64,000 bases of DNA, taken from positions 2,144,001 through 2,208,000 of the forward strand of contig CAVZZO010000001.1 in the NCBI GenBank assembly GCA_963779755.1, read 5' to 3'. The notes below the pieces were generated by a model that did no database searches, was not told the DNA's origin, and saw only the letters and a list, made by a program, of their open reading frames with translations. Both the position numbers and the translations under genes were made by a program. Below, in pieces: positions 33,783 to 49,694 of the stretch. The stretch comes from an uncultured Gemmatimonadales bacterium. Lineage in GTDB: Bacteria > Gemmatimonadota > Gemmatimonadetes > Gemmatimonadales > GWC2-71-9. Position 1 is the stretch's first letter; every line of letters starts with the position of its first letter.

Positions 33783-34972
33783 TCTGGCTCGCCTTCGCCG
33801 TCGGGGCGCTGCTGGCGCTGGGGGGCGCCGCCGTGGGCGCCGGGCTGGTCGCGCTGGGGCGGCTGGAGCTCACGCGCGCCGCATCCCGCCGGCTGCGCGG
33901 CGATCAGGTGCCCAGCCCCTGGCTGGGCCGGATCGACCGCTACCTGGCGGCGGCTTCCGCCACCATGTCGCTGGGCATTGTGCTGCTGGGGGCCGTCCTG
34001 CCCGCGCTGAGCGGCGGCATCATGAGGTTGGTCATCGCGCTGGCGGCCCTGATGGTCGCCCTGCCGCTGGTGCTCTTCAGCGGCTCGGTGGTGCCCGGCT
34101 GGCTGGAACGGCCGGCGGTGGAGCGCGTGGCGCGGCGGCTGGGCCCCCTGCTGCGGCCGTGGGCGGTGCTGTTCACGCCGCTGCTCCCGGCCCGCAATCC
34201 CGGACGGATCCACGAGATCCAGTCGGTGCTGCGGGAAGGCGCGGCGGAGGGGCTGCGGACCGATCAAGAGCTGATGATGGCCGCCGGCGTCATGACCTTC
34301 AGCGACCGGACGGCGCGCGAGGTCATGACGCCGCGCACCGACATCGTCGCCATCGCCGAGGATGCCGACCTGGGGGAGATCCACCAGGTCTTTGCCCAGA
34401 GCGGCTACACCCGCATCCCGGTCTATCGCGGCACGCTGGACGACATCGTCGGCATGCTCCACGCCTTCGACCTCTTCAAGCTGAAGGAGGGCGATCCGCT
34501 GCCCATCCGGCCGGTCACCATGACGCCCGCCAGCCGGCGCTGCGGCGACCTGCTGCTGGACATGCAGCGCGAGCGCCGGCACCTGGGCATCGTGCTGGAC
34601 GAGTTCGGCGGGACGCTCGGCCTGGTGACCCTGGAGGACCTGCTGGAGGAACTGGTGGGCGAGATCTCCGACGAGCACGACGAGCACCCGCCCGCCGGCG
34701 GCCCGCCGGCCACCCAGGTCTTCGAGACCGACGGCGCCACACCCACCGCCGCCATCGAGGAGCGCTTCGGCATGACCTTCGACGGCGGCCGCGCCACCAC
34801 GGTGGGCGGGTTGCTGACCGAGCTGGCCGGCCGGATTCCCTTCGCGGGCGAACGCTTCGTGCTGCACGATCTGGAGTTCGATGTGCTGCAGGCCTCCCCC
34901 AACCGGGTGGAGCGCGTCGTCATTCGCCCCGGTCCCGTGGCGCCTACCTCGCTCCCTCCCACCGGCGCATGA
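33779..34972 (+). CDS. Second CorC/HlyC (CNNM-type) protein
   Basis: EVMTPRTDI, SGYTRIPVY, VLDEFGGTLGLVTLEDLLEELVGEI. Confidence 0.9.
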   Translation: MIWLAFAVGALLALGGAAVGAGLVALGRLELTRAASRRLRGDQVPSPWLGRIDRYLAAASATMSLGIVLLGAVLPALSGGIMRLVIALAALMVALPLVLFSGSVVPGWLERPAVERVARRLGPLLRPWAVLFTPLLPARNPGRIHEIQSVLREGAAEGLRTDQELMMAAGVMTFSDRTAREVMTPRTDIVAIAEDADLGEIHQVFAQSGYTRIPVYRGTLDDIVGMLHAFDLFKLKEGDPLPIRPVTMTPASRRCGDLLLDMQRERRHLGIVLDEFGGTLGLVTLEDLLEELVGEISDEHDEHPPAGGPPATQVFETDGATPTAAIEERFGMTFDGGRATTVGGLLTELAGRIPFAGERFVLHDLEFDVLQASPNRVERVVIRPGPVAPTSLPPTGA

Positions 34973-36318
34973 CCGCCCGGGAAGACACCACCGATCTGAT
35001 CGAGCCCCTGCTCGAGCGGCTCCGCAGCGGCGACCTGCCGGGCTTCGCCGCCACGGCGGGCGAGCTGGAACCGGCGGACCTGAGCGACGTGCTGATGGCG
35101 CTGGAGCCGGACGAGCGCCTGACCGCCGTGCGCCTGCTGCCCACCGAATTGTCGGCCAAGGCGCTGTTTGAGATGCCCGACGCGACCGGGGCGGAGGAGA
35201 CCCTGGCCGCGCTGGACCCGGCGCAGGCCATGGCGCTGCTCGACGCGCTGAACGACGACGAGGCGGCCGACCTGCTGGGCCCCATGGAACCGGGCCTGCG
35301 GCTGCGCCTGCTCGGGGGGTTGCGCAACCGGGGCGAGGTGGAGCGGCTGCTCCGGTACGACGAAGAGACCGCCGGCGGCATCATGACCGGCCAGGTGGTG
35401 ACGGTGCTGGACACCGACACGGTGGCCCAGGCCCTGGAGCGGATCCGGCGGCAGGTGGAGCGGACCGAGGATTTCTATCAGATCTTCATCACCGACCGGG
35501 CGCGCAAGCTGGTGGGCGTGCTGCCGCTCAAGGATCTGGTGATCAGCCCGCCGGGGCGGCCGGTGCGCGACTTCATGGAAGAGGCCGATCCCCACGTCCC
35601 GGCCGACATGGACCAGGAAGAGGTGGCGCGGCTGCTGTCGCGCTACAACGTGCCCAGCGTGCCGGTGGTGGACGGCGACGGCCGGCTCATCGGGCGGGTC
35701 ACCTTCGACGATGTGAGCGACGTGCAGGAGGCCGAGGCCACCGAGGATCTGCTCAAGTTCGGCGGCCTCTCGGGCGACGAGGACCTGTCGGCCGGCTGGA
35801 CGGTGTCCGCCCGGTCGCGGCTGCCCTGGCTGGTGCTCAATCTTGTCACCGCCTTCATGGCCGGCGCGGTGGTGCTGATGTTTCAGGGCACGGTCAACCG
35901 GGTGGTGATCCTCTCCGCCTGGATGCCGGTCATCGCCGGCATGGGCGGCAATGCGGGGACGCAGGCGCTCGCCGTCACCGTGCGGCGGCTCGCGGTCGGC
36001 GCCATTCCCCCGGGCCAGTTTCTCCGGGTGATCGGCAAGGAGTCGATCGTCGGCATCATGAACGGCCTGGCCATCGGGATCCTGGTGGCCGGGGTGGCCG
36101 CGCTGCTGGGCGGCCATCCCCGGCTGGGCCTGGTGGTGTTTCTCGCCATGAGCGGCAACCTGTTCGTCGCGGGCTTCGCCGGCGCGTTCATTCCCATGCT
36201 GCTGGAGCATCGCGGGGTGGACCCGGCGGTTGCCTCCTCCATCTTCGTCACCACCTTCACGGACATCTGCGGCTTTACCCTGCTGCTGGGGCTGGCCCAC
36301 CTGCTGCTGGGTGGCTGA
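34969..36318 (+). CDS. mgtE: Magnesium transporter MgtE
   Basis: Y.EETAGGIMT, CBS pair, RLPWL, GMGGNAGTQ, DPAVAS..FVTTFTD. Confidence 0.95.
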   Translation: MTAREDTTDLIEPLLERLRSGDLPGFAATAGELEPADLSDVLMALEPDERLTAVRLLPTELSAKALFEMPDATGAEETLAALDPAQAMALLDALNDDEAADLLGPMEPGLRLRLLGGLRNRGEVERLLRYDEETAGGIMTGQVVTVLDTDTVAQALERIRRQVERTEDFYQIFITDRARKLVGVLPLKDLVISPPGRPVRDFMEEADPHVPADMDQEEVARLLSRYNVPSVPVVDGDGRLIGRVTFDDVSDVQEAEATEDLLKFGGLSGDEDLSAGWTVSARSRLPWLVLNLVTAFMAGAVVLMFQGTVNRVVILSAWMPVIAGMGGNAGTQALAVTVRRLAVGAIPPGQFLRVIGKESIVGIMNGLAIGILVAGVAALLGGHPRLGLVVFLAMSGNLFVAGFAGAFIPMLLEHRGVDPAVASSIFVTTFTDICGFTLLLGLAHLLLGG

Positions 36319-37949
36319 TGCGCGCAATCGTCATCTTCCTTCGCCTGGCGCCCTTCGTGGTCGCCTTCCTGCGCGACCGCCGCCGCTGGATTCTCTTCGG
36401 CCGCCCCGCCCGCCGGACACCCGAGGCACAGGCTGCCCGCGCCGAGCGGCTGACCGCCACCCTGGCGGGCCTGGGGCCCACGTTCATCAAACTGGCGCAG
36501 GTGTTCGGGTCGCGGGCCGATATTCTGCCGGAGCCCTACCTCGGCGCCATTTCGACCCTGGTCGACCGGGTGCCGCCGCTGGCGCCGGGCGTGGCCGAAC
36601 AGGTCATCGCGCGGGAGGCCGGCCGGCCGGTGGGGGAGCTGTTCACCCGGTTCGACGCGGAACCGCTGGCGGCCGCCTCGCTGGGGCAGGTGCATCGGGC
36701 GGCGATGCCCGGGCGCGAGGTGGTGGTGAAGATCCTTCGGCCCGGCGTGGAGGACCTGGTGGAGCAGGACCTGCGGATTTCCTTCCGCATCCTCTTCGGA
36801 CTGAACCTGCTCTTCCCCAACCATCACATCCGCGCCATCACCGCCATCGTACAGGAGTTCCAGAAGCGGATCTGGGAGGAGATGGATTTCCGGGAGGAGG
36901 CGAAAAACGCGCAGGTGTTGCGCGCCAACTTCGCGGCCGACCCGCGGGTGGTGATTCCGGAGGTGGTCGACTGGCTCACCCAGCGCCGGATGCTGGTGCT
37001 GGAATATGTGGAGGGCACCCGGATCGACCGGCTGCAGGACCGGGTGGCCGCGGGCGAGCTGGATCTTACCGCGCTGGTGCGCACCGTGGTGGAGCTGTAT
37101 CTCCAGATGATGCTGGTGGACGGCGTATTCCACGCCGACCCGCACCCGGGCAACCTGCTGGTGGACCGCCAGGGCCGGCTGGTGCTGCTCGATTTCGGCA
37201 TGGTCCTGCGGGTGGAGCGTGAGACCCGCTCCCGCATCGTACGCACCGTGCTCTCGGTGCTGAGCCAGGACGTGGACGGCGTCATCAACGGCTTCTACGA
37301 ACTGGGGATTCTCGATCCCGACGTGGACCGCGGCACGGTGCGCGACGCCGCCCAGCAGCTGCTGAGTCTCACGGTCCGGAACGACCTGTCGCCGCGCCAG
37401 CTCCAGCGCATAGTCGACGACGTGCTGCGGACGTTCTACGACTGGCCGCTGATGCTGCCCAGCTACCTGGTGTACTTCGGGCGCGCCGCCGTGCTGGTCG
37501 AGGGGATCGGGCTGCGCTACGATCCCAACTTCAACGGGATGAACGTGATCCGCCCGGCGGTGGAGACCTACCGCGACCGGCTCATCCTCGGCCTGGCCGA
37601 CGACCGGGGAGTGTTCGGCGACTGGCCGCAGGAAGCGGCGGCGGTGCTGCGCCGGATGCGCGATCTGCTGCGCCGCGTGGACCGCGAGGAGCTGCGGGTG
37701 CGCTGGCACCCGCGCGACACGCTGGAGTTGCAGCGTTTTCTGGCCCAGCAGGTGCGGCGGGGATTGCTCTCGATCTTTGCCTTTACCATCGCGCTCATCA
37801 CCGCCATCGTTTACCTGGCTGTGCGCCGCCTGGAACTGCTGATCGTCGGACTCTTCCTCTCTCTGGGCATGTTCCTGGTCATCTTCCTCATGCCCAGCCA
37901 TCTCTTCCAGAATCCGCTGCGGTTCCGGCCCCGGCGGCCGCCGCGGTAG
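36318..37949 (+). CDS. AarF/UbiB/ABC1-family kinase-like protein
   Basis: LGPTFIKLAQ, AAASLGQVHRA, VKILRP, FHADPHPGN, DFGM; C-terminal TM pair. Confidence 0.93.
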   Translation: MRAIVIFLRLAPFVVAFLRDRRRWILFGRPARRTPEAQAARAERLTATLAGLGPTFIKLAQVFGSRADILPEPYLGAISTLVDRVPPLAPGVAEQVIAREAGRPVGELFTRFDAEPLAAASLGQVHRAAMPGREVVVKILRPGVEDLVEQDLRISFRILFGLNLLFPNHHIRAITAIVQEFQKRIWEEMDFREEAKNAQVLRANFAADPRVVIPEVVDWLTQRRMLVLEYVEGTRIDRLQDRVAAGELDLTALVRTVVELYLQMMLVDGVFHADPHPGNLLVDRQGRLVLLDFGMVLRVERETRSRIVRTVLSVLSQDVDGVINGFYELGILDPDVDRGTVRDAAQQLLSLTVRNDLSPRQLQRIVDDVLRTFYDWPLMLPSYLVYFGRAAVLVEGIGLRYDPNFNGMNVIRPAVETYRDRLILGLADDRGVFGDWPQEAAAVLRRMRDLLRRVDREELRVRWHPRDTLELQRFLAQQVRRGLLSIFAFTIALITAIVYLAVRRLELLIVGLFLSLGMFLVIFLMPSHLFQNPLRFRPRRPPR

Positions 37950-37965
37950 GAAAGGGGAGTCAGGA

Positions 37966-38532
37966 GTGGGGATTGAAGGATCTGCTGGCTGCCTGGCGAT
38001 CCGGGCCGCCACGGCGGAGGATGCCGCGATGCTGGCCGAGTTCGCCGCGCGCACGTTCCGCGAAACCTTCTCGGCGCAGAATACGGCGCACGACATGGAA
38101 CTCTTCCTGTCGCGGACGTACGGCCCGGAACGGCAGGCGGACGAGCTACGCGACCCGGCGATGACGACGCTCCTGGCCGAGGAGGCGGGGACGCTGGTCG
38201 CCTTCGCGCAGCTGCGCGAGGGGCCGGCGCCACCCCGCGTCCCCGGCCGCCGCCCGCTGGAGGTGCAGCGCTTCTATGTGGACCGGCCCTGGCACGGCCG
38301 GGGGCTGGCGCAGGCGCTCATGGGCCGGATCCTGGACCATGCGCGTGACCGGCGGGCGGATGTCGTCTGGCTCGGTGTCTGGGAGCACAACGCGCGGGCG
38401 CGCGCGTTCTATGGCAAGCTGGGATTCCGGGATGTAGGCTCGCAGCCGTTCCTGCTGGGGACCTCACACCAGACCGACCGGGTCATGGCGCTGGTGCTCG
38501 GGCGCCCTCAGCTCAGCCACACGTCCACCTGA
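37966..38532 (+). CDS. GNAT acetyltransferase (PaiA-like)
   Basis: EVQRFYV...HGRGLAQALM, WLGVWEHNARARAFY.K.GF, F.LG...QTD. Confidence 0.88.
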   Translation: MGIEGSAGCLAIRAATAEDAAMLAEFAARTFRETFSAQNTAHDMELFLSRTYGPERQADELRDPAMTTLLAEEAGTLVAFAQLREGPAPPRVPGRRPLEVQRFYVDRPWHGRGLAQALMGRILDHARDRRADVVWLGVWEHNARARAFYGKLGFRDVGSQPFLLGTSHQTDRVMALVLGRPQLSHTST

Positions 38533-38575: not shown

Positions 38576-38604
38576 AAAGACGCCCCGCCGTTGCCGACGG
38601 GGCG
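38576..38604 (-). terminator. Intrinsic terminator of the peptidoglycan-binding gene
   Basis: Minus strand cgccccgtcg-GCAA-cggcggggcg followed by TCTTT. Confidence 0.7.
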
Positions 38605-38659
38605 CTAAACGTGGGGCGGTGTTCTTGGCCGCACGCACCCCACGGGTGGGATCCTGCGA

Positions 38660-39061
38660 TCAGCCCTTGGGCTGCGGCTTCAACTTCGCCAGCTCATCCT
38701 CCGTCAGCCGGCCGTTGACCTTCTCCTTGTTCGCCTTCTGCCACGCGCGGAGCGCGCGCGTCGTCTCGCTGTTCCAGACGCCGGTCGCCTTCCCCTTGTA
38801 GAATCCGGCCTTGGCCAGGCCCTCCTGGGCCGCCTTGACGTCGGCCTTGGTATAGCGGTGCCGCACCGCCGGTTTGGCCCCGGCGGTCTGCGCCGTGGTG
38901 CGGGTCACCGTGGGGGCGGCCTGATGGTTGGCTGCGGGGGCGGCCTTCGGGGCCATCTGATGCTTCGCCGCCGGCTTGGCGGAATCCGGCTGCTGCGCCA
39001 GCACCGGGGCCGCCAGCAACAGCCCCGAAAGCGCCACAGCCATACTCACCGTGCGATACAT
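38660..39061 (-). CDS. Small secreted protein with a PG_binding_1 peptidoglycan-binding domain
   Basis: Signal peptide (..LLLAAPVLA/QQ), Ala/Pro/Lys linker, VKAAQEGLAKAGFYKG..TGVW...T..ALRAWQ....V.G.L. Confidence 0.88.
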   Translation of the reverse strand: MYRTVSMAVALSGLLLAAPVLAQQPDSAKPAAKHQMAPKAAPAANHQAAPTVTRTTAQTAGAKPAVRHRYTKADVKAAQEGLAKAGFYKGKATGVWNSETTRALRAWQKANKEKVNGRLTEDELAKLKPQPKG

Positions 39062-39130
39062 AGAATTGGTTCTCCATCCCGGTACGTGGTTGCCTGCGTC
39101 CTGCGTCACCTGCTGCCGTGGTGGAGGAAG

Positions 39131-39145
39131 GCAATCGGCGTACCA
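39131..39145 (-). promoter_or_regulatory. Sigma54 (-24/-12) promoter
   Basis: TGGTACG-CCGA-TTGC with exact GG-N10-GC spacing, 70 bp upstream of the 39061 ATG. Confidence 0.8.
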
Positions 39146-39244
39146 CACCCGCGGCGGCCGGCTGTGACACCGGAAGTGCGCTCGTTGCCTGGAGATAGAT
39201 GCAGCGGACGAGTGAGTGGCGGGCAGCGCACCGACGCGGTTGCG

Positions 39245-39277
39245 GCGCCAGATTGGCACCGCGGGACAAGTTGGCCC
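39245..39277. promoter_or_regulatory. Pair of candidate enhancer (UAS) palindromes
   Basis: gcgcca-gat-tggcac (39245) and gggaca-agt-tggccc (39263), 100-130 bp upstream of the -24 box. Confidence 0.65.
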
Positions 39278-39281
39278 GGGC

Positions 39282-40688
39282 TCAGCCGTGCCGGCGGGGC
39301 AGCGACCAGCGCTGAATCATGCGGGTCAGCGTGCGGCGCGAAATACCCAGGATGCGGGCCGCTTCCTCCCGGTTGCCGCGGGTGTGCTCCAGCACCCGCA
39401 CCACGTGCAGCCGGTCCACCTCTTCCAGCGACGGTAGTCTGGCGTCCGTTCCGGCAGCGGCGGGCACGGCGGCGGGATGCGCTCCGCCGGCTCGGAGGGT
39501 GGACGGAAGATGCTCGGGGCCGATGATGTCCTGCGCCGCCATCACGACCGCGCGTTCCAGCACATTCTGCAGCTCCCGGACGTTGCCGGGCCAGTCGTAG
39601 GCCAGGAGCCGGGCCTGGGCGTCGGGATCGAGGGCGAGCGGGTCCCGGCCATGCCGGGCGGCGAGCATCCGCAGGAAATGATCGATAAGCAGGGGAATAT
39701 CCTGCCGCCGGTCGCGCAGGGGCGGCAAGGTCAGGCTCACCACGTGGAGGCGGTAGTACAGGTCTTCGCGGAACCGGCCTTCGCGGACCAGCGCCTCCAG
39801 GTTCCGGTGCGTGGCGGCGATGACGCGCACATCGACGCGCACCGCGCTCTCCGAGCCGACCGGCACGATCTCGTGCTCCTGCAGCGCCCGCAGCAGCCGT
39901 GCCTGCAGGGCGGGCGAGATGTCGCCGATTTCGTCCAGGAACAGGGTTCCCTTATCGGCCTCGCGGAAGAGACCGGGCCGCGAGCCGGTGGCGCCGGTGA
40001 ACGCGCCGCGTACGTGGCCGAACAACTCGCTCTCCAGCAGGCCCTCGGCCAGGGCGGAGCAGTTCACGGCGACGAAGCGGCGGGATGCGCGGTCCGAAAA
40101 GCGATGGATGGTGCGCGCCACCAGTTCCTTGCCGGTACCGGTCTCGCCCAGGATGAGCACCGTGGCCTGGCTGGGCGCCACCCGCGCCACCGTCTTCATG
40201 ACGTCAATCATGCCGGGGCTGTGGCCCACCAGCAGCTCCTCGGAGGCCGGTTGGCGCGCGCCGGATCGCTGGGAATGCTCGACCCGGCGCTCGCTCACCT
40301 GGCGGCGGCGCTCGACCGCGCGGCTCAGCAGGAGCCGGAGGGTGCCCAACTCGTAGGGCTTGCTGATGAAGTCATACGCGCCGGCCCGAATTGCCTCTCC
40401 GGCGGCGGTGGCGTCGCCGAAGGCGGTGAGCACCAGAACGACGGTATCCGGGGCGACGTCGCGCAGGTGCTGGACCAGTTCGAGGCCGCTCTCGCCCGGC
40501 ATCCGCAGGTCGGTGAGCACCGCGTCGAACGGTCCGCCGTCCTCCAGCCGGGCCCGCGCCTCGCCCACCGAATGCGCTACCGTGACCTCGTAGGCCTCGC
40601 GTTCCAGCACTTCGGCCAGCAGGCGGCAGGCAGCCTCGTCATCGTCCACCAGCAGCATGCGGGCGCGGGGAGCAAGGGTGGGAGTCAT
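39282..40688 (-). CDS. Sigma54-dependent NtrC/AtoC-type response regulator
   Basis: REC (LVDDD, TDLRMPG, KP), GETGTGKE, ESELFGH..GAFTGA, FLDEIG, WPGNVREL, Fis-type HTH; ATGA overlap with the kinase. Confidence 0.96.
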   Translation of the reverse strand: MTPTLAPRARMLLVDDDEAACRLLAEVLEREAYEVTVAHSVGEARARLEDGGPFDAVLTDLRMPGESGLELVQHLRDVAPDTVVLVLTAFGDATAAGEAIRAGAYDFISKPYELGTLRLLLSRAVERRRQVSERRVEHSQRSGARQPASEELLVGHSPGMIDVMKTVARVAPSQATVLILGETGTGKELVARTIHRFSDRASRRFVAVNCSALAEGLLESELFGHVRGAFTGATGSRPGLFREADKGTLFLDEIGDISPALQARLLRALQEHEIVPVGSESAVRVDVRVIAATHRNLEALVREGRFREDLYYRLHVVSLTLPPLRDRRQDIPLLIDHFLRMLAARHGRDPLALDPDAQARLLAYDWPGNVRELQNVLERAVVMAAQDIIGPEHLPSTLRAGGAHPAAVPAAAGTDARLPSLEEVDRLHVVRVLEHTRGNREEAARILGISRRTLTRMIQRWSLPRRHG

Positions 40689-42127
40689 GCCGGTGCCTTC
40701 GGAAGAGTCAGCCGCCATCCGGTGCCCCGTTCCAGCGGCACGTACTGCAGATCGCCGCCCATGGCCCGGGCCAGCCGGCGGCTCACGGCCAGGCCCAGGC
40801 CGGTGCCGCTGGTTCCCTTGGTGGTGGCGAACGGATTGAAGAGCTGATGCCGGGCGCCGGCGGCAAGGCCCGGGCCGTCGTCCTGGATTTCGAGCGAGAC
40901 GCCGGTTCCGTTGGCCGCCATGCGCAGCACCACGTGGTCACCCGCCTTCAGCGCTTCGATGGCGTTCTTCAGCAGGTTGAGCAGGATCTGCTCCACCATG
41001 AAAGGATCGCAGAGCGCTCGCGTCCCGGCGGCGGGCGGAAGCATGGTGGCCTCGACGCCTGCCTCCTGGAAGGAAGGCTCCAGGAATTGCAGCATGTGTC
41101 CCGCAATCTCGCCCAGGTTGGCGGCGCGGAGCACCGGCCGGGGCCATTCGCCCCCGTCCAGCCGGGCCCGGACGATGGTCGCCATCCGGTCGACCTGGCC
41201 CAGCAGCAGGGTGGCCCGGTCCACGGCGGCCTGGTCGCCGGCCTCGCGCAGGTCGTCACGCAGGAGCTGCAGGTGCCCGCTCAGGGTGTTGAGCGGGGTA
41301 CCGATCTCGTGCGCGAAGCTCGAGGTGGTCTCCTCCATCAGCGCCAGCCGGTCAAACCCGCGGGCGCGCTCTTCCAGCGTGAGCAGCGCCGCCCGGGCGC
41401 GGCTCTCGGCCTCGCGCCGGGCCAGGGCCTCGCGCATGTGGTTGTACTGCCGGGCCAGGGCGCGGAACTCGGGCGGCCCCAGTTCGGGAGCGGCGGGTGC
41501 GCCGCCCGCGCCGGCGTGCGCGCCGGCCATGGCCCGGCCCAGTTCCGAGAGGGGCCGGCCGATCCAGCCTGCGGTGAGCAGGGCGACCCCCAGTCCTACC
41601 AGCGCCGCGGAAATGCCGGCCAGGGTATAGACGCGCCAGCGCTCGCGCCGGGCCCACGATTCCAGGCGGAGGGTGGAGACCTTGACGTCCAACACCCCAT
41701 AGGGCCGTTCGCCGCCGAGCGGCGCCGCGACCCGCCAGCCGGGGTCTGGCCCGCCGACGAAGGCGGTGGCAATACTGTCGCCGCCGAGCGCATCGAAGTC
41801 GATCCGCGCCGTGCGGTCCGGCTCGAGGGTGTCGCTGGTTACGGCCGCGGTGAGGCCGGTCGTGTCGCGCAGAAACACCTGCGCGCGGGTGCGGGTCACG
41901 TGCTGGCGCGACCAGCCGCTGAAGCCCTGCGCCAGGTCCTGCGGATCACCGGTTGGCGCCAGGTCGGTCAGAAAGGTGGCCAGCGTCTGGGCCAGGGCGA
42001 CCGATTCGGTGCGCAGGTCCTCCAGCCGGCTCCGCTGCGACCAGTCGAGCGCCACCTTCGCACCGGCCAGGACCAGCAGCACCGACATCACGGCAACGAC
42101 GGCACCCAGCCGGCGGGGAAGTCCCAT
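40685..42127 (-). CDS. Membrane sensor histidine kinase (HAMP-HisKA-HATPase)
   Basis: Two TM helices, FAHEIGTPL H-box, QILLNLLKNA, DDGPG, FNPFATTK..GTGLGL. Confidence 0.94.
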   Translation of the reverse strand: MGLPRRLGAVVAVMSVLLVLAGAKVALDWSQRSRLEDLRTESVALAQTLATFLTDLAPTGDPQDLAQGFSGWSRQHVTRTRAQVFLRDTTGLTAAVTSDTLEPDRTARIDFDALGGDSIATAFVGGPDPGWRVAAPLGGERPYGVLDVKVSTLRLESWARRERWRVYTLAGISAALVGLGVALLTAGWIGRPLSELGRAMAGAHAGAGGAPAAPELGPPEFRALARQYNHMREALARREAESRARAALLTLEERARGFDRLALMEETTSSFAHEIGTPLNTLSGHLQLLRDDLREAGDQAAVDRATLLLGQVDRMATIVRARLDGGEWPRPVLRAANLGEIAGHMLQFLEPSFQEAGVEATMLPPAAGTRALCDPFMVEQILLNLLKNAIEALKAGDHVVLRMAANGTGVSLEIQDDGPGLAAGARHQLFNPFATTKGTSGTGLGLAVSRRLARAMGGDLQYVPLERGTGWRLTLPKAPA

Positions 42128-42128
42128 C

Positions 42129-43064
42129 TCAGCGTTCCGGGAGGCCCGGCACGTCGGGAGCCGGCGCGCGTCCGGGCCAGGGGAGCACCCGCGCGCCCAG
42201 CGCGGCGCCCACGGCCAGGACCGGAAGCACCTGCACCGCCTGCAGCAGCAGCCCCGCGCCGACGGCAAGCGCCGGGGTTACCCCGAAGGGGAGCAGGCCC
42301 AGGACCATGGCGCCCTGCAGCACGCCGACATTGGCGGGCGTCAACCGGAGCAGCCCGCCCAGATTGGAGAAGATCAGAGCAGCAAGCGCTCCCGGAACGG
42401 GCGCAGCGAGATGCGCGGCCTGGATGACGGCGGCATAGGAGCCCCATTGCAGCAGCCAGTTCAGCAACGCCAGCAGGAAGGGCGCGGGCAACCGGCGGGG
42501 TGACAGCGCCAGAGCGGCCAGGCCGCGCGCGAGTCGTGCCGGCAGGTAGCGTCGCAGCGGGCCCAGAGCCGCGGCGAGCGCCGCTACCAGGAGCAGCAGG
42601 ATGAGCACGCCGGTGCGCAGCCCGTCGGGCAGGCCGGGTGGCAGGGGCGTAAGCGCGAAGAAGGCAGGGAGCAGGGGGAGGAGCGCCAGCGCTTCGACGC
42701 CGCGGAGCTGGAGGAGCGGCGCCAGCCCGGGCAGCATGGTCCGGCCATCCTCGCGGGCCAGCCAGTGCAGCCGAACCGCCTCGCCGCTCACCGAAATGGT
42801 GATGGCGCTTGCGGCGGCGCCGACCAGCGTGGCCGCCACCGCCCCACGCCAGCGCGGCCGCGCCTCCCGGGGAAAGAGGCTCCACCAGGCCCAGCCCTTG
42901 GCGGCCAGCGATGCCAGGTTGAGCAGGGCCGCGAGGGCGAGCAACGACAGACTGGCCGAGGCCAGCACGGCCGCGGTGCTGGACCAGGGAAACCGTATCA
43001 GCACCCAGACGGCCAGCACCGCGGCCCCGATACCGAGGACCGGCTTCAGGCGGCGGAGCTGCAT
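42129..43064 (-). CDS. Lysylphosphatidylglycerol-synthase-TM (flippase-like) membrane protein
   Basis: About 8 TM helices, SGEAVR and LTPANVGV.QG motifs typical of the YbhN/AglD2/MprF-N family. Confidence 0.8.
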   Translation of the reverse strand: MQLRRLKPVLGIGAAVLAVWVLIRFPWSSTAAVLASASLSLLALAALLNLASLAAKGWAWWSLFPREARPRWRGAVAATLVGAAASAITISVSGEAVRLHWLAREDGRTMLPGLAPLLQLRGVEALALLPLLPAFFALTPLPPGLPDGLRTGVLILLLLVAALAAALGPLRRYLPARLARGLAALALSPRRLPAPFLLALLNWLLQWGSYAAVIQAAHLAAPVPGALAALIFSNLGGLLRLTPANVGVLQGAMVLGLLPFGVTPALAVGAGLLLQAVQVLPVLAVGAALGARVLPWPGRAPAPDVPGLPER

Positions 43065-43759
43065 GGCAGCAGCTGCTCCAGTCGGCCGAAGGAATAGCCG
43101 GCGTCGCGCGCGTCGGCGATGATGCCGGGCAGCGCCTGGGCGGTTTGCAGCCGGTCGCCCTGCAGGTCGTAGCCGTCGCCATCGTGCAGCAGGATGATGG
43201 CGCCGGGCGCCAGATGCCGGCGCACCCGCTCGCGAATGACGGCGGCGCCCGGCCGCGCGGAATCCCACACTCCGAAACTCCACCCGACGGTGTGGAGGCC
43301 CAGCCGGGCGGCGGCCTGTCCCACCCAGGGATTCCGGTAGCCGTGCGGTGCGCGGAACAGCCGCGGCCGCTGGCCGGTCGCGATGCCGATGATCTCGCTG
43401 GTGCGCGCCAGCTCGTCGCGAATCCGCCTCGGCGGCTGGAAGTGCAGCTTCCGGTGCGACCAGGTGTGGTTGCCGATGACATGGCCGGCGGAGGCTACCT
43501 GGCGCGCCACGGCGGGCAGCCGCTCGACAAAACCTCCCACCATGAAGAAGACGGCCGGTACGCGCTCCCGCTCCAGGACGTCGAGCACGGCGGCGGTGGC
43601 CTGGGGGTTGGGGCCGTCGTCGAAGGTGAGAAAGACGGTGGGGTGGCGCGGCCCCCGGCTGATCACCGGGCCGAAGAGTCGGCTCCGCGGATTGTACGCG
43701 CCCCAGGCCATGGCCCCCGCCGTGGCGGCGGCTCCGCCCAGTCCGGGAACCCAGAACAC
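43046..43759 (-). CDS. Polysaccharide deacetylase (CE4/NodB)
   Basis: LTFDDGP, GNHTWSH, FRAPHG, IILLHDG. Confidence 0.93.
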   Translation of the reverse strand: MFWVPGLGGAAATAGAMAWGAYNPRSRLFGPVISRGPRHPTVFLTFDDGPNPQATAAVLDVLERERVPAVFFMVGGFVERLPAVARQVASAGHVIGNHTWSHRKLHFQPPRRIRDELARTSEIIGIATGQRPRLFRAPHGYRNPWVGQAAARLGLHTVGWSFGVWDSARPGAAVIRERVRRHLAPGAIILLHDGDGYDLQGDRLQTAQALPGIIADARDAGYSFGRLEQLLPCSSAA

Positions 43760-43762
43760 GGC

Positions 43763-44866
43763 TCAGCGCACCCGCTGGTAGACCCGCAACACCCGGTCGG
43801 TGATGTGGGGCCAGCCGTAGTCCAGCGCCTTCGCGCGTCCGGCGCGCCCCATGTCGGCGCGGCGGGACGTATCGCCTAACAGCTCGAGGATCGTTTGCGC
43901 CCAGCACTCCGGCCGTCCGGGCGGAACCAGCGCCGCTTCCCGCCCGTGGTTCACCAGCTCCCGGAATCCCGTGATATCGGAGACGATCATCGGCGTGGCG
44001 CAGGCCATGGACTCGAGCAGCGTGATCCCGAAGGAGGCTTTGGTGGTCGGGCAGAGATAAAGATCGGCTGAAGCATAATGCTTCGGACGCTCCCCGTTGA
44101 CCCGCCCCACAAAATCGACGCTCGCGGCCACCGGCCGGGCCAGCCGCTCGTAGACCCCGCGGAGCGGCCCATCGCCCGCCACGGTGAGCCGCGCGCCGGG
44201 ATGCACCTGGAGCACCCGGGGCAGCGCCCGGAGGACGGTGTCGAGCCCATTGCGGGGGTCGAGCCGTCCCAGGAACAGCAGCCGGGGGCCCGGCGCCTGC
44301 GCCGGGCGGCTCCCGGCCGCCGGGTGAAAGACGGTGGTATCAATGCCGTTCGGGATCACCTCCCAGTCGGCCCGGAAGTAGCGGCCGTGCGCCGCCACCA
44401 CCGGCTGGCTGACGGCAATGACCGCGGCGTGCCGGTCCAGTCGTTCTTGCAGCGGGCGGCGGAAGACGCGGTACAGAGCGGAACGGGGGAACCAGGAATG
44501 GAAGGTGGCCACCACCGGCAGATCGAGGCGATGGGCGGCGGTCGCCGCCACCAGCCCGAAGGTAGGGGCCAGGCCGCCGTGGATGTGGAGGACCTCCAGC
44601 CGCTCTCGCCGGAAGAGGTCCTCCAGCCGCTCGGTGAGCCGCCAGCCGGTGGTGACCCGGGCAAAGGATCCGCTGCTGTAGATGACCCGGCTGGTACCGA
44701 CCCGGCGAACGAAATGAGGATCGGGATGATCCAGCCCCTGCATGACCGAGGTGATCACCACCGGGTCGTGTCCCCGCCGCTCCAGTTCGATCGCCAGGTT
44801 GTGAACGTGCTCGGTGACCCCGCCCAGGTGGGGATAATAGAACTCCGTGACCAGCCCGATGCGCAT
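43763..44866 (-). CDS. GT4 glycosyltransferase (PimA-like)
   Basis: MRIGLV...Y..LGGV.EH, VATFH, IPNGID, LFLGRLD, SFGITLLESMAC. Confidence 0.92.
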   Translation of the reverse strand: MRIGLVTEFYYPHLGGVTEHVHNLAIELERRGHDPVVITSVMQGLDHPDPHFVRRVGTSRVIYSSGSFARVTTGWRLTERLEDLFRRERLEVLHIHGGLAPTFGLVAATAAHRLDLPVVATFHSWFPRSALYRVFRRPLQERLDRHAAVIAVSQPVVAAHGRYFRADWEVIPNGIDTTVFHPAAGSRPAQAPGPRLLFLGRLDPRNGLDTVLRALPRVLQVHPGARLTVAGDGPLRGVYERLARPVAASVDFVGRVNGERPKHYASADLYLCPTTKASFGITLLESMACATPMIVSDITGFRELVNHGREAALVPPGRPECWAQTILELLGDTSRRADMGRAGRAKALDYGWPHITDRVLRVYQRVR

Positions 44867-44900
44867 ACGAGGCCTACCGGTTGAGAACGCCTCCCGTTGG

Positions 44901-44915
44901 GCAAGATGACAGCCA
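44901..44915 (-). promoter_or_regulatory. Sigma54 (-24/-12) promoter of the GT4 operon
   Basis: TGGCTGT-CATC-TTGC with GG-N10-GC spacing, 35 bp upstream of the ATG at 44866. Confidence 0.65.
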
Positions 44916-45000
44916 GGAGCCTGGGCCCCTCCCGCACAGAGCCAAGGCGGGCAGAGCCAACGACATAGGATGCAGGGAGAACCTCAATCTTCATGCACCG

Positions 45001-45060
45001 GGGACAAAATGGCCAGGCAGTAATGGTACGCTTCCTGGCCCATAGGAGCCAAAGTGTCCC
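45001..45060. promoter_or_regulatory. Second pair of candidate UAS palindromes
   Basis: gggaca-aaa-tggcca (45001) and gagcca-aag-tgtccc (45046) match the 39245/39263 sites. Confidence 0.65.
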
Positions 45061-45275
45061 GGAATCGTCGCTTCTGCCGCCGCGCTACGCCAGTGGCAGG
45101 ATCCGGTTCTCGGGTATCTCGAAGGTGCGGGTGCCGTCGATGCAGGTCTTGTTGTCCTGAAAATGAGCCCGACCAGGCTGGTGGTTCCATTGGGGAGGCG
45201 ACGGCCCGGGACGTGCCGGGAATGACGCGCTCCGGCAGCCATTGCCTATCTCCTTGGCTCCTGCGAATTTCCAGC

Positions 45276-46307
45276 ATGACATGGGATGCGCTGCTGACCG
45301 ACCTCAAATCCGGGAAGGCCGCGGCCTTGGCGCGCGCGATTTCGATCGTGGAGAACGAGCGCCCCGGGTTCGAACAACTGCTGACGGAGTTGCATCCCTC
45401 CCTTGGCCGGGCCTGGCGGATCGGCCTGACCGGCCCTCCAGGCGCCGGGAAATCCACCCTCACTGAAGAACTGGTCCGCGCCTACCGCGCCCAGGGCCGC
45501 ACCGTGGCGGTGGTGGCGGTCGATCCCACCAGCCCGTTCACCGGCGGCGCCCTGCTGGGCGACCGGATCCGGATGGAGTCGGTGGCCCTGGATGATGGCG
45601 TGTTCATCCGCTCCATGGCGACCCGGGGATCGCTGGGAGGGCTGGCGATGAGTACGCGCGAGGTCTGCGATGTGCTCGATGCGGCCGGCTTCGACCGCCT
45701 GCTGATCGAAACGGTCGGCGTGGGGCAGTCGGAGCTGGATGTCACCCGGATGGCCGATACCACCCTGCTGGCGCTGGTGCCCGAGTCCGGCGACGGCATT
45801 CAGGTGCTCAAGGCCGGCGTGATCGAAGCCGCCGATCTGTTCGTGGTGAACAAGGCCGACCGCCCCGGCGCCGACCGCATGCGGCACGAGCTGGAGGTGA
45901 TGCTGGGCTTACGGCATGGCCGCACGCTCCGGAACGTGCCGGCCCACCATGGGGCGTTGCGCTCCGGCCCGGCGCCGGAGGCGCCGGAAAGCGACGGTGG
46001 CTGGTCACCCGAGGTGCTCACCACCGTTGCGGTGAAGAGCGAGGGTACGCCGGAGCTGATGGCGGCGCTGGAGCGGCACCGGCAATGGCTGGAAACCACC
46101 GGCGAGCTGGCCGAACGCCGCCGCCGCCGTCTGCGGGAACGCACACGAGAGGTCGTCAACCGGGCCGCCCGGCAGTGGATCTGGGACGAAACCCAGGCCG
46201 ACCAGATGATCGAAGAACGGCTCGATGCCGTGCTGGCCGGCCGGCTGAGTCCCTACGAGGTGGCGGGGCTGGTCCTGGAGAGCCTGAAACAGGGAGCGCG
46301 GGTATGA
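45276..46307 (+). CDS. meaB: MeaB/ArgK GTPase chaperone of acyl-CoA mutase
   Basis: [52 protein letters not shown]. Confidence 0.96.
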
Positions 46308-48010
46308 GTGATCAGGACGCCGCGGCCGCCGGACTGCACCGCCGGGTGGCCGAACAGGAACGCGAGCTGGCCGAGCTCCGCCGCGAGGTGGAGCGGTGGC
46401 GGGCGCTGGCCGCGAACGCGCCGCTGCGCGATACCGCCTTTGCGACGGTGAGCGGACGTGAGGTCGAACCGGTGTATACGCCGCTCGACCTGCGTCCCGA
46501 TCTCATCGAGGCCAGCGGCCTGCCGGGAGCCTTTCCCTATACCCGCGGGATCCATCCCACCATGTATCGCGGGCGGCTCTGGACCATGCGGCAGTTCGCC
46601 GGGTTCGGAACGGCCGAGGACACCAACCGGCGCTACAAGTTTCTGCTGTCGCGGGGGCAGACCGGCCTGTCGGTGGCGTTCGATTTCCCCACGCTGATGG
46701 GCTACGACTCCGACCACCCGCGCAGCGAGGGCGAGGTCGGCAAGTGCGGCGTCGCCATCTCCAGCCTGGCGGACATGGAAACGCTGTTCGACGGCATCCC
46801 GCTGGACCGGGTCTCCACCTCGATGACCATCAACGGCCCGGCGCCGATGCTCTTCTGTTTCTACGTGGCGGCGGCCGAGAAACAGGGGGTGGCGCCCGCA
46901 CAGCTGCAGGGCACGGTCCAGAACGACATGCTGAAGGAGTACATGGCCCAGCATGCCTGGATCTTCCCGGTGGAGCCGGCGCTCAAGGTCATCGTCGACA
47001 TGTTCGAGTGGGCGTCGGAGCACACCCCGAAGTGGAACACCATCTCCATTTCCGGCTATCACATCCGCGAGGCGGGCGCCACCGCGGCCCAGGAGCTGGC
47101 CTTCACCCTGGCGAACGGCTTCTCCTATGTGGAGCACGGCATCGCCCGCGGGCTGGACGTCGATGCCTTCGCGCCCCGGCTCTCGTTCTTCTGGGACGTG
47201 CACAACGATTTCTTCGAAGAGATCGCCAAGATGCGGGCCGCGCGGCGGATCTGGGCCCGCAGCATGCGCGAGAAGTACGGGGCGACCAATCCGCGCAGCT
47301 GGGCCATGCGCTTCCACTGCCAGACGGCGGGGGTGACGCTGACGGCGCAGCAGCCGCTCAACAACATCGTGCGGGTCGCCTACCAGGCCATGGCGGCCGT
47401 GATGGGCGGCACCCAGTCGCTCCATACCAATGCCCTGGACGAGACGCTGGCCCTGCCCACCGAAGAGGCGGTCCGGGTGGCGCTCCGCACCCAGCAGATC
47501 CTCGCGTGGGAGACCGGGGTACCCAACGTGGCCGACCCGCTGGGCGGGTCTTATTACGTCGAGGCCCTGACCGACCAGCTGGAGCGCGAGGCGGCGGGGC
47601 TGTTCGCGGAGATCGAGGCGCAGGGCGGGGTCGTGCCGGCCATCGAGAAGGGCTGGTTCCAGCGCCAGATCGCGGCCTCGGCCGCCTCCTTCCAGCGGGA
47701 GGTGGAATCGGGGCGGCGTACCATCGTGGGTGTCAACGAATACGTGGAGACGGCGGAATCGCCGGTCGAGGTGCTCCGGATCGGCGAAGAGGCCGAGCGC
47801 ACCCAGCGCGAGCGGATGGCGCGGTTGCGCGCCACGCGCGATACGGCTCTGGTGGAGCAACGGCTGGCGGCGCTGGCGGAGGCGGCGCGGGAAGACCGGA
47901 ACGTGATGCCGGCCATGCTCGACTGCGCCCGCGCCTACTGTACCCTGTATGAAATCCGGCACGTGCTGGAGCGCATCTTCGGCACCTATCGCGAGCCGGT
48001 ATTCTTCTGA
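46304..48010 (+). CDS. icmA: B12-dependent acyl-CoA mutase large subunit, isobutyryl-CoA mutase-type
   Basis: [50 protein letters not shown]; Phe and Gln at the positions of MCM Tyr89 and Arg207. Confidence 0.85.
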
Positions 48011-48084
48011 TGATCTCGCCGGGACGGGTCCGGCCGGGGCGCCGCGTGCGCCCGGCCGGAGCGCCGGCGATGACGGGATGGCAC

Positions 48085-49239
48085 ATGAACCAGCCAGACA
48101 TCTCGGGCCAGCTGGAGCGGCTGACGCAGGTCCGGGCCGACAGCCACCGCGTAGTCACCTGCTATCTCAAGCTGGAGCCGCGTGACCGCGCCCGCGGGAA
48201 ATATCTCATCAAGCTCAAGAACCGGGTCCGGGCGGTCGAAGGGGCCCTGGAGGAGCTGGAGCTGCCGCGCGACGTCCGCGAAGCGGTCAAGCACGACTGC
48301 CAGCGAATCCTCGATTATCTGGGCGCGCCGGGGAACCTCCCCGCCACCCAGGGACTGGCGGTGTTCGCCTGCACTCCGCTCAAGCTGTTCGAAGCGCTGC
48401 CGCTCCCCGGAGTCTATCGTTCCCGGCTCACGGTCGACCGCACCCCGCTGGTGCGCGAGCTGGCGGCCGTGCTGGACGAATTCGGCCGCCTGATCACCGC
48501 CGTGGTCGACCGCACCAGCGCCCGCTTTTTCGAGGTCACCGCCTATGACTGCCGGGAGCTGGACAGTCTGCGGGCCGATTTCACCCGTGGGGGGAGGTAT
48601 TACGGCGAGCGTCAGGGGTTCTTCGGCCGCAGCGAGCACGATTATCACAGCCGGATCCGCGAAGAAAAGCGGCGGCACTACGCCAACGTGGCGCAGCAAC
48701 TGTTCGAGCTGACCCAGCGCGAGCCGGCGCACGGCGTGGTGCTGGCCGGGCCCGGATCCGAGGCGGGGGCGGTGGAGCCGTATCTGCATCCCTACCTGGC
48801 CGAGCGGCTGATGGGAACGGTGCGGCTCAATCCGAAGGACCTGAGTGCGCAGGCGGTGCACACCGCCACCCTGGAGGTTCGCCACGACTGGGAACGGCGC
48901 GCCGAGCGCGACCTGGTCGGCCGGATGCAGGAAGGACTGGGAAGCGGTTGGGCGGTCAACGGCCTCGGCCCGGCCCTGCGCGCCCTGGGGCGCGGCCAGG
49001 TACGCACCCTGCTGGTGGCGGCGGACGCCGCGCAGCCCGGCTTCCGGTGCGCCGATACCGGGCGGCTGGTGCTGGGGCCGCGTGATTGCCGGGGTGAAGG
49101 CGAATCGGTGCCGGTCCTCGACGTGGTCGACGAGGCCATCGAAGAGGCACTGCGGCAGCAGGTGGGAGTCAACGTGGTCTATGATGATCAGGCCGCCGGC
49201 CAGATCGACGGGCTGGCCGGCCTGCTCCGTTTCCGGTAA
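48085..49239 (+). CDS. Bacterial archaeo-eukaryotic release-factor-like protein (baeRF/aeRF1 fold), no GGQ
   Basis: [56 protein letters not shown]-terminal DGLAGLLRF; alternative starts at 48010 and 48070. Confidence 0.82.
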
Positions 49240-49261
49240 GCCGTCAAGGAGATTGCCCCGC

Positions 49262-49690
49262 ATGCCGTCTTCCGTTCATACCCCTTCCCGGCCCATCCGG
49301 GTGCTGGTCGCCAAACCCGGGCTGGACGGTCACGACCGTGGCGCGAAGGTCGTGGCCGCCGCGCTGCGCGATGCGGGCATGGAGGTGATCTACACCGGCC
49401 TGCATCAGACGCCCGAGATGATCGCCCGCGCGGCCGTTCAGGAGGATGTCGATGTGGTCGGGCTCTCGATTCTGAGCGGGGCGCACATGACGCTCTTTCC
49501 CCGCGTCCGCGCGCTCCTGGTCGAGCAGGGTCGGCCCGACATCCTGGTGACCGGGGGCGGCATCATCCCCGACGAAGATCGCCAGGCGCTGGAAGCGAAG
49601 GGCATCGGACGGCTGTTCGGCCCCGGCACGCCCACGGCGGATCTGATCAGCTATATCCGGTCCTGGGCCGCCGACCATCTCGACCGGTGA
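49262..49690 (+). CDS. icmB: Cobalamin-binding small subunit of acyl-CoA mutase
   Basis: [12 protein letters not shown] (DxHxxG), [19 protein letters not shown]. Confidence 0.9.
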
Positions 49691-49694
49691 GCCT

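Follow-up and report, generated by a model that had tools for sequence, protein, structure and literature searches.

Which lipid would be made, and under what control, by a glycosyltransferase, a deacetylase and a putative flippase encoded beside their own two-component system? The question is raised by six co-oriented genes on the minus strand of a 64,000-nucleotide stretch of DNA (the window) from an uncultured Gemmatimonadales bacterium. The genes encode, in order, a GT4 glycosyltransferase, a CE4 deacetylase, an LPG_synthase_TM protein, a histidine kinase, a response regulator and a PG_binding_1 protein. Gene calls and measured intergenic distances (+3, -19, +1, -4 and +220 bp in gene order) agree with a preliminary description of the locus, in which the first five genes were at most 3 bp apart or overlapping. 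The features are listed below.

45048..45058, minus strand: UAS palindrome G[AC]CA-N3-TG[TG]C, distal site of the GT4 promoter; putative regulator-binding site
45003..45013, minus strand: activator palindrome (pattern), proximal site of the GT4 promoter; putative regulator-binding site
44901..44915, minus strand: sigma54 -24/-12 promoter of the five-gene operon, ~50 nt 5' of the GT4 start
43763..44866, minus strand: GT4 glycosyltransferase, 367 aa; PimA is the best PDB match; putative HexNAc:inositol-lipid transferase
43046..43759, minus strand: NodB-type CE4 de-N-acetylase, 237 aa; PF01522, E 5.7e-36
42129..43064, minus strand: LPG_synthase_TM (YbhN/MprF-flippase-like) protein, putative flippase, 311 aa; PF03706, 91.5 bits (cut-off 33.4)
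40685..42127, minus strand: sensor histidine kinase, 480 aa; 2 TM; HAMP-HisKA-HATPase
39282..40688, minus strand: NtrC/AtoC-type sigma54 response regulator, 468 aa; PF00072, PF00158, PF02954
39265..39275, minus strand: activator palindrome (pattern), distal site of the PG-binding gene promoter; putative regulator-binding site
39247..39257, minus strand: activator palindrome (pattern), proximal site of the PG-binding gene promoter; putative regulator-binding site
39131..39145, minus strand: sigma54 -24/-12 promoter (pattern) of the PG-binding gene
38660..39061, minus strand: secreted PG-binding protein, 133 aa; PF01471; signal peptide
38580..38605, minus strand: 11-bp terminator-like hairpin 3' of the PG-binding gene (consensus match only)

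The six-gene arrangement is conserved in Gemmatimonadota and is not due to chance. CE4 follows GT4 in 76 of the 77 related loci with sufficient sequence when counted by script, and the sole miss (L064) is a boundary artefact, CE4 being seen there. Both CE4 and the flippase gene follow GT4 in 59/71 related loci, a kinase is present at the GT4 locus in 24/69, and the regulator gene is followed by the PG-binding gene in 17/21 loci. The trio genes therefore co-occur under the neighbourhood check that had been proposed for them, which supports the earlier logic of sugar transfer, deacetylation and flipping.

Judged by sequence, the window GT4 is not PimA itself, a phosphatidylinositol mannosyltransferase, but a member of a separate clade that is sister to it. 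PimA is its best PDB match in sequence search (E 3e-38, 134.9 bits versus 79 for the next) and in profile comparison (1e-116, 393 versus 183 bits), and ranks first in Foldseek with the GT4 fold; GT4 families are the only matches to the protein at E ≤ 0.01. The window enzyme carries the signature N206/R260/A277, and the N/A clade that contains it is monophyletic in the tree (support 0.957). PIG-A orthology, to which an N-terminal motif pointed, was rejected, PIGA being absent from the 9 Pfam families matched by 105 alignment members (E ≤ 0.001). GT4 neighbourhoods were examined in three lineages.

In the accessible text of two accounts of PimA (PMC9202250, PMC2988379), the acceptor-side residues are Y9, Q18, Y62/N63, R68, H118 and R201, the GDP-mannose contacts are K202, E274, R228 and P14, and E274 is reported to be essential. 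Across an alignment of 76 loci, the equivalents of H118, R196, R201 and E282 are each retained in 76/76, R68 in 68/76 and N63 in 41/76; the position of Y9 is F or Y in 74/76, and that of Q18 is T or C and so not retained. At the donor contacts, K202 is replaced by N in 76/76 loci, E274 by A in 74/76, R228 by D in 76/76 and P14 by L in 75/76. The change of E274, reported as essential in PimA, to A speaks against a firm assignment of donor and chemistry. It is unlikely that GT4 adds mannose or glucose to phosphatidylinositol (PI) to give a flipped PIM1-like lipid, with CE4 as a peptidoglycan deacetylase that has no part in this pathway and serves together with the co-regulated PG-binding protein: the mannose- and guanine-contacting residues are replaced clade-wide, even though JGI names close homologues phosphatidylinositol alpha-mannosyltransferase. 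Among 8000 candidates, 2396 proteins belong to the GT4 family at E ≤ 1e-30, many of them named PI mannosyltransferase. The window cluster has no PatA-like acyltransferase neighbour; such a gene adjoins a K/E-type GT4 copy in another genome (G029).

CE4 bears on the same alternative. Its motifs (TFDDG, HxxxH, RxPxG and LLHD) are intact, only PF01522 matches it, and PF10096 was not found in the window genome (97% complete). The presence of peptidoglycan deacetylases among its best solved relatives favors an unrelated wall enzyme, as do the many N-type GT4s without an adjoining CE4: none has one nearby in a second Thermoleophilia subgroup (11/11), nor do 16/30 short loci and 6/10 long loci in a second phylum. 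The N-terminus of CE4, however, is a short hydrophobic stretch without charges followed by basic residues, and the lack of a charged n-region together with these basic residues suggests a cytoplasmic domain. Also against the alternative, one Thermoleophilia locus (L097) has CE4 and flippase as a single fused protein, and CE4 follows GT4 even in 32 loci from genomes without a kinase match. Within Thermoleophilia, CE4 adjoins 18/23 main-group N-type GT4s and 0/16 K-type GT4s. The LPG_synthase_TM protein has about eight hydrophobic segments, and a sequence search returned no solved relative of it.

Since GT4 is PimA-like by sequence, profile and fold, an inositol phospholipid is a more likely acceptor than the DAG or phosphatidylglycerol proposed earlier. 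Transfer, deacetylation and flipping on phosphatidylglycerol or a neutral glycolipid, yielding GlcN-PG or an HNHDRG-like lipid, appears rather unlikely. Acceptor specificity of GT4 enzymes drifts easily, and the window GT4 does match the GpgS model, but weakly, with 61.8 bits against an equivalog cut-off of 480 (NF053787); it ranks 8th of the genome's 16 matches to this model, a different GT4 of this genome reaches 235 bits, and GpgS orthology was rejected. In addition, the PimA acceptor residues are largely retained, and inositol genes are found clustered with members of the clade. In favor of such acceptors is gene order, identical to that of gpgSDF and hexSDF as far as the accessible text of their descriptions goes (PMC12713373, PMC10128005).

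Genes for PIP synthase and INO1 (inositol-1-phosphate synthase) are adjacent in the window genome, where the PIP synthase match is 147 bits, below the cut-off of 170, and in 7/7 close trio-bearing relatives. Both are near-universal in these groups (38/41; INO1 81/93), and co-occurrence by itself therefore does not discriminate; INO1 was not found in 6/50 GT4-bearing genomes. In the second phylum, INO1 lies 6.2–12.5 kb from GT4 in 10/29 genomes with both, an Aur1-like PAP2_3 gene adjoins GT4 in 14/30 loci, and a PIP synthase search gave matches in 87/93, each of them weak, with E between about 1e-17 and 1e-29. The window genome also holds an operon with SPT, GNAT, reductase and PAP2_3 genes for sphingolipid; its own PAP2_3 had no PDB match. 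Ceramide as an obligatory acceptor was rejected, as four family f2 genomes with the trio (98–99% complete) yielded neither an SPT orthologue (best 38–39%) nor a match to the PAP2_3 of the window genome. The E. coli control genome gave no INO1 match. Because plain E. coli lacks inositol synthesis, failure to see a new lipid in that host, the refutation proposed earlier, could wrongly count against the pathway.

DedA (VTT) proteins adjoin the kinase in several relatives, and the second-phylum cluster includes MMPL and Wzi, with GT2/PMT genes in one case. Such neighbors would suit a trio whose product is not an end-product membrane lipid but an amino-sugar donor or anchor, either on polyprenyl phosphate or GPI-like and extended further, for downstream surface modification. 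This is quite improbable, given that no GT-C/PMT gene is found in the window cluster or among commonly shared neighbors and that polyprenyl-phosphate priming is usually carried out by GT2 enzymes.

The hallmarks of sigma54 control are all present: a regulator with GAFTGA (bEBP), rpoN in the genome, and two -24/-12 promoters, which the preliminary description did not mention, each with paired upstream activator sites. Kinase stop and regulator start share an ATGA. Promoter plus UAS occur 5' of GT4 in 20/22 loci with an adjacent kinase, in 9/15 with a kinase elsewhere in the genome, in 0/32 without a kinase and in 0/20000 of the background, with a UAS pattern refined after inspection of the upstream alignment and with related genomes that are not independent counts. 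In three kinase-bearing genomes the promoter precedes the kinase gene and none lies within 330 nt of the trio. A weight matrix built from the PG-binding promoters scored only 1/23 GT4 promoters above 10, and the plain -24/-12 pattern was therefore used. Opposite-strand coding as the source of the pre-GT4 motif was rejected: the surrounding DNA is otherwise unalignable, the distance is fixed, a second palindrome is conserved, and the motif recurs 5' of the kinase gene. With matching sites before the PG-binding gene, a sigma54 regulon covering both the operon and this gene, as in the preliminary description, is well supported. The paired palindromes are probably the binding sites of the regulator.

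Two TM helices of the kinase flank a periplasmic domain of roughly 140 aa, residues 27–168, for which sCache-like is the lead. The PG-binding protein consists of a signal peptide, an Ala/Pro/Lys linker and one PG_binding_1 domain. A predicted complex between the kinase sensor and this domain scores 0.68 (best control 0.42), a mark reached by 116/157 solved pairs and 2/215 mismatched pairs; contacts agree to at least 84% and partner pLDDT is at least 81. The model supports binding of the PG-binding protein to the sensor and makes it a candidate accessory partner.

Taken together, the preferred reading, at a probability of roughly 0.55, is that a PimA-derived GT4, a CE4 and a flippase make a zwitterionic glucosaminyl inositol lipid under their own sigma54 two-component control with a feedback partner. 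[quoted passage not shown] Membrane-tethered CE4 would then strip the acetyl group. Anionic PI that carries glucosamine is zwitterionic, and the cationic lipid of the preliminary description is not supported; glucosaminyl-PI or glucosaminyl-IPC is the likely product. The LPG_synthase_TM protein may flip this lipid outward. A periplasmic signal would switch the kinase on, and the phosphorylated regulator would bind the paired sites and open both promoters, that of its own operon (positive autoregulation) and that of the PG-binding gene, whose product may act back on the sensor. More tentatively, Gemmatimonadales and several other uncultured lineages might make GlcN-inositol phospholipids including GlcN-alpha1,2-IPC, a zwitterionic sphingolipid core in fungi, by a PimA-derived GlcNAc transferase without the canonical GT4 Lys/Glu pair and tuned by a sigma54 envelope sensor with a free PG-binding domain as feedback partner; this would fit the window genome because the sphingolipid operon is present besides PIP synthase and INO1.

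If true, inositol lipids become a third acceptor class for bacterial amino-sugar lipid pathways, and bacteria gain a head group like that of GPI or GIPC without the use of PIG-A. The naming of thousands of proteins, many called PI mannosyltransferase, would be corrected, and a GT4 clade would be defined in which two residues regarded as essential for PimA are missing. A small, fully mapped sigma54 regulon would become available in a soil phylum whose genetics is little developed, and the specific lipids predicted could be searched for by LC-MS.

A literature search largely confined to openly accessible papers, and so mostly without the polar-lipid tables of species descriptions in subscription journals, found nothing on bacterial GlcN-PI/GlcN-IPC, on Gemmatimonadota inositol lipids or on a sigma54-controlled trio. 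Within that scope, the trio logic is already published for other lipids in two pathogens, and the enzyme type and likely product seem unstudied. In the accessible text, P. aeruginosa gpgSDF is a GT4 version of the trio in which GlcNAc transfer and deacetylation give zwitterionic GlcN-PG (PMC12713373), whereas C. difficile HexS is of the MGDG-synthase type and acts on monohexosyl-diradylglycerol (PMC10128005). On these descriptions gpgSDF is a closer precedent than the HexSDF system named earlier. A GT4 trio as such is not new; what differs here is the PimA-like GT4 and the sigma54 control.

As in gpgSDF, so far as that account extends, a GT4, a deacetylase and a YbhN/UPF0104 flippase stand in the same order in one operon. 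The window deacetylase is NodB-type (PF01522), while that of gpgSDF is COG3233, a type equivalent to DUF2334; the window GT4 is not GpgS and has a PimA-type acceptor site, and its trio is accompanied by an accessory protein and a sigma54 two-component system of its own. With hexSDF/hexRK, as described in the available text, it shares a synthase, a polysaccharide deacetylase and an MprF-like flippase followed by a two-component system controlling the trio, such control being seen here by promoter/UAS co-occurrence only. The synthase differs, being a PimA-like GT4 and not of the MGDG-synthase type, and so does the regulator, here an NtrC-type sigma54 activator. Mycobacterial PimA (PDB 4N9W, 2GEJ) is the closest solved relative of GT4 in sequence and fold, but the partner here is a CE4 deacetylase and not an acyltransferase. 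PimA acts on the inositol 2-OH and GPI synthesis uses the 6-OH. The predicted glucosamine-inositol-phospholipid head group resembles, as a product-level analogy only, the first steps of GPI (GlcNAc-PI, GlcN-PI) and the fungal GlcN-alpha1,2-IPC core that Aspergillus GntA is described as making in the accessible part of its account (PMC5954224). In its regulatory half, the locus recalls the two-component modules with an accessory protein, ZraPSR and CpxPAR, having a small secreted protein with a regulator-dependent promoter beside kinase and regulator; unlike theirs, the accessory protein here is a single PG_binding_1 domain, and its binding is model-based.

The cluster consists of six co-oriented genes:

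43763-44866, minus strand, GT4 glycosyltransferase
43046-43759, minus strand, CE4 deacetylase
42129-43064, minus strand, LPG_synthase_TM flippase-like protein
40685-42127, minus strand, kinase
39282-40688, minus strand, sigma54 regulator
38660-39061, minus strand, PG-binding protein

The preliminary description had the first five genes overlapping or no more than 3 bp apart, and the successive gaps (+3, -19, +1, -4 and +220 bp) agree with this. The GC content of the cluster is that of the remaining window. Related loci are mostly from Gemmatimonadota. Matches to the GT4 (E <= 1e-40) were found in 9 of 41 genomes (its own and 40 relatives), with identities of 48-64% in seven relatives and 37% in one; the module is therefore patchy. 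Among the best 80 of 151 confirmed loci, CE4 follows GT4 in 76 of the 77 with enough sequence, the lone miss being a script boundary artefact, and both CE4 and flippase follow in 59/71. The kinase is present at 24/69 of these loci, and the PG-binding gene lies 3′ of the regulator in 17/21. Of the twelve loci scored as lacking the flippase, five are of Thermoleophilia type, and in L097, the only one of these scanned, CE4 is fused to the flippase. The co-occurrence on which the preliminary description depended is thus observed. On these frequencies the trio is the old unit and the regulatory block a sub-lineage addition. The module is real, conserved and regulated.

On one side (33779-38532) the cluster faces convergent CorC/hemolysin-like, MgtE-like, ABC1/AarF kinase and GNAT genes, CorC and MgtE being presumed labels; all but the GNAT gene recur in relatives as chromosomal context. 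On the other (45054-51341), the genes running divergently from the GT4 promoter encode a MeaB GTPase (Pfam) and, presumably, a carboxyltransferase and subunits of methylmalonyl-CoA mutase. DedA (VTT) and SulP-like genes, in relatives often divergent from the kinase or from the GT4 promoter (L181, L183 and others of L180-L191; L018 region), are absent at the corresponding place in the window.

Control by sigma54, proposed earlier for the operon and the PG-binding gene alike, is upheld. Relatives share, 3′ of the regulator gene, a -24/-12 site with two short palindromes ~90-125 nt upstream of it, and alignment of 20 GT4 upstream regions revealed a second -24/-12 site with a palindrome of the same pattern, G[AC]CA-N3-TG[TG]C (UAS). 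The kinase was sought in the 49 genomes behind 50 loci without an adjacent one and was found elsewhere in the genome for 15 loci. Promoter plus UAS, scored within 330 nt of the GT4 start at loci with at least 200 nt upstream, occurs at 20/22 loci with adjacent kinase (window counted), 9/15 with kinase elsewhere, 0/32 whose genomes gave no kinase match and 0/6 outside the kinase search, counts in which related genomes are not independent and the pattern was refined on the same data. None of 20000 random windows from the genome contains the combination. Six sites pass genome-wide; of these, only the GT4 and PG-binding sites combine a canonical promoter with a close pair of UAS. At 12 "elsewhere" kinase loci, the promoter lies directly 5′ of the kinase in eight and the PG-binding gene follows in ten. 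This class is mixed, since one locus is itself another complete cluster and in one the kinase comes after a flippase. Three genomes carry the promoter before the kinase and lack it before the trio. rpoN is present in the window's genome. Our reading is a two-component system with autoregulation and two targets; the sigma54 regulon is strongly supported, with binding by the regulator predicted.

Association with kinase and regulator is tighter for the PG-binding protein than for the trio. The kinase periplasmic domain (27-168), for which an sCache-like fold is a lead only, was modelled in complex with the PG-binding domain (62-133); the score was 0.68, versus 0.42 for the best control. That control paired the PG-binding partner with an unrelated chain, so this domain may dock readily. 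The mark used for such models is reached by 116/157 solved complexes and 2/215 mismatched pairs. Contact agreement between runs was at least 84% and partner pLDDT at least 81. The model supports a possible feedback role, which we take to be CpxP/ZraP-like.

The GT4 reached no NCBIfam cut-off, and the GpgS model gave it 61.8 bits against a cut-off of 480. A different GT4, paired with one of seven LPG_synthase_TM matches in the window's genome (L179; G000:C1:1843310-1845339), is nearer GpgS (235 bits). PimA is the closest solved relative by sequence (E 3e-38), the top match for a profile of 105 sequences (393 bits; the next scored 183) and Foldseek rank 1 for the model (pLDDT 96.3), and many close homologues carry the JGI name PI alpha-mannosyltransferase. 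Residue roles, taken from the available parts of PMC9202250 and PMC2988379, were compared by pairwise alignment in 76 full-length locus proteins. Equivalents of H118, R196, R201 and E282 are each kept in 76/76 and R68 in 68/76, and the Y9 position is aromatic in 74/76; N63 is kept in 41/76 and Q18 is lost. K202 is replaced by N (76/76), E274 by A (74/76), R228 by D (76/76) and P14 by L (75/76), and R260 is invariant. In a FastTree phylogeny of 146 sequences, in which P0126 with PimA-like motifs stands in for M. smegmatis PimA, N/A/R proteins form one clade (support 0.957) beside PimA-like K/E proteins (0.823), with a weak joining node (0.202). In L017 (G029, a Gemmatimonadales genome) a K/E-type PimA-like GT4 shares a canonical-looking PIM locus with genes for a PimB′-like GT4, an acyltransferase and an MFS protein. 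The simplest reading of these residues would be an acceptor of the same kind as PimA's and a different donor.

The presence of CE4 is the sole reason to propose an N-acetylated donor. Of 86 homologues, 77-84 retain any given catalytic motif intact. A short uncharged hydrophobic N-terminal stretch followed by four basic residues, and two-helix versions in other lineages, suggest a cytoplasmic domain, fitting deacetylation before flipping as proposed for GpgD. A DUF2334 deacetylase was not found in the window's genome. A counterpoint is that no CE4 lies nearby at 16/30 short and 6/10 long loci of a second phylum; an acetylated end product is possible there, as is a CE4 gene located elsewhere. 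Within a Thermoleophilia sample (121 genomes; 30 best loci and 20 chosen weaker ones), CE4 adjoins 18/23 main-group N-type GT4s and 0/16 K-type. BLAST found neither CE4 nor flippase in a second N-type subgroup (n=11), four members of which have a PAP2_3 neighbour.

In the window's genome a PIP-synthase-like gene lies directly 5′ of INO1 (G000:C1:1831499-1833504, L102); its best PDB matches are PI synthases (E 8.5e-27; 147 bits, cut-off 170). Both genes are present in 38/41 genomes, which predicts phosphatidylinositol as a common Gemmatimonadales lipid, and INO1 was found in 44/50 GT4-bearing genomes. Being near-universal, these genes permit an inositol acceptor and do not test it. A further operon of this genome, comprising genes for serine palmitoyltransferase (SPT; E 5e-125; 524 bits versus cut-off 640), GNAT protein, NAD-dependent reductase and PAP2_3 (G000:C1:1782552-1786739; L178 8552-12739, minus) suggests ceramide and inositol phosphoceramide synthesis, the ceramide-synthase and reductase roles being presumed. 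Its PAP2_3 is matched in 31/41 genomes and 0/8 of family f2; four trio-bearing f2 genomes with PI genes gave no SPT orthologue, so the acceptor there would be diacyl PI.

Gene context in the second phylum (93 genomes around G088) is sharper evidence for an inositol lipid than this co-occurrence. GT4 occurs in 32 and INO1 in 81; 29 genomes have both, and in 10 of these the distance between the two is 6.2-12.5 kb. MMPL and Wzi genes accompany them there in at least two gene arrangements. An Aur1-like PAP2_3 gene (Aur1, E 7e-5; PI-dihydroceramide synthase model, 41 bits, far below cut-off) adjoins GT4 in 14/30 loci. At L158-L167 a conserved INO1, ChaN-like, Wzi, MMPL, YdjM and PAP2_3 cluster diverges from GT4-(CE4)-flippase, possibly a locus for inositol-glycolipid synthesis and export. 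In L159, INO1 also has HAD and NTP-transferase neighbours, a grouping reminiscent of the alternative inositol-lipid cluster in the available part of PMC9246714.

The product is likely an amino-sugar lipid, and transfer from a HexNAc donor to an inositol lipid is the best reading (probability roughly 0.55). Such a product would be zwitterionic, and the cationic glycolipid suggested earlier is not borne out. Fungal GlcN-alpha1,2-IPC is described in the accessible text of PMC5954224; no bacterial GlcN-PI or GlcN-IPC pathway was found in the literature searched, which lay mostly outside subscription journals. As far as the accessible portions describe them, gpgSDF encodes a GT4, a deacetylase and a YbhN flippase and makes GlcN-PG (PMC12713373), and hexSDF, with adjacent hexRK, has an MGDG-synthase-type HexS (PMC10128005). 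The module resembles both in its working, but feature tests place it in neither. The proposed analogy to HexSDF/HexRK therefore holds for the working and not for membership, and a GT4-type trio is already known in gpgSDF.
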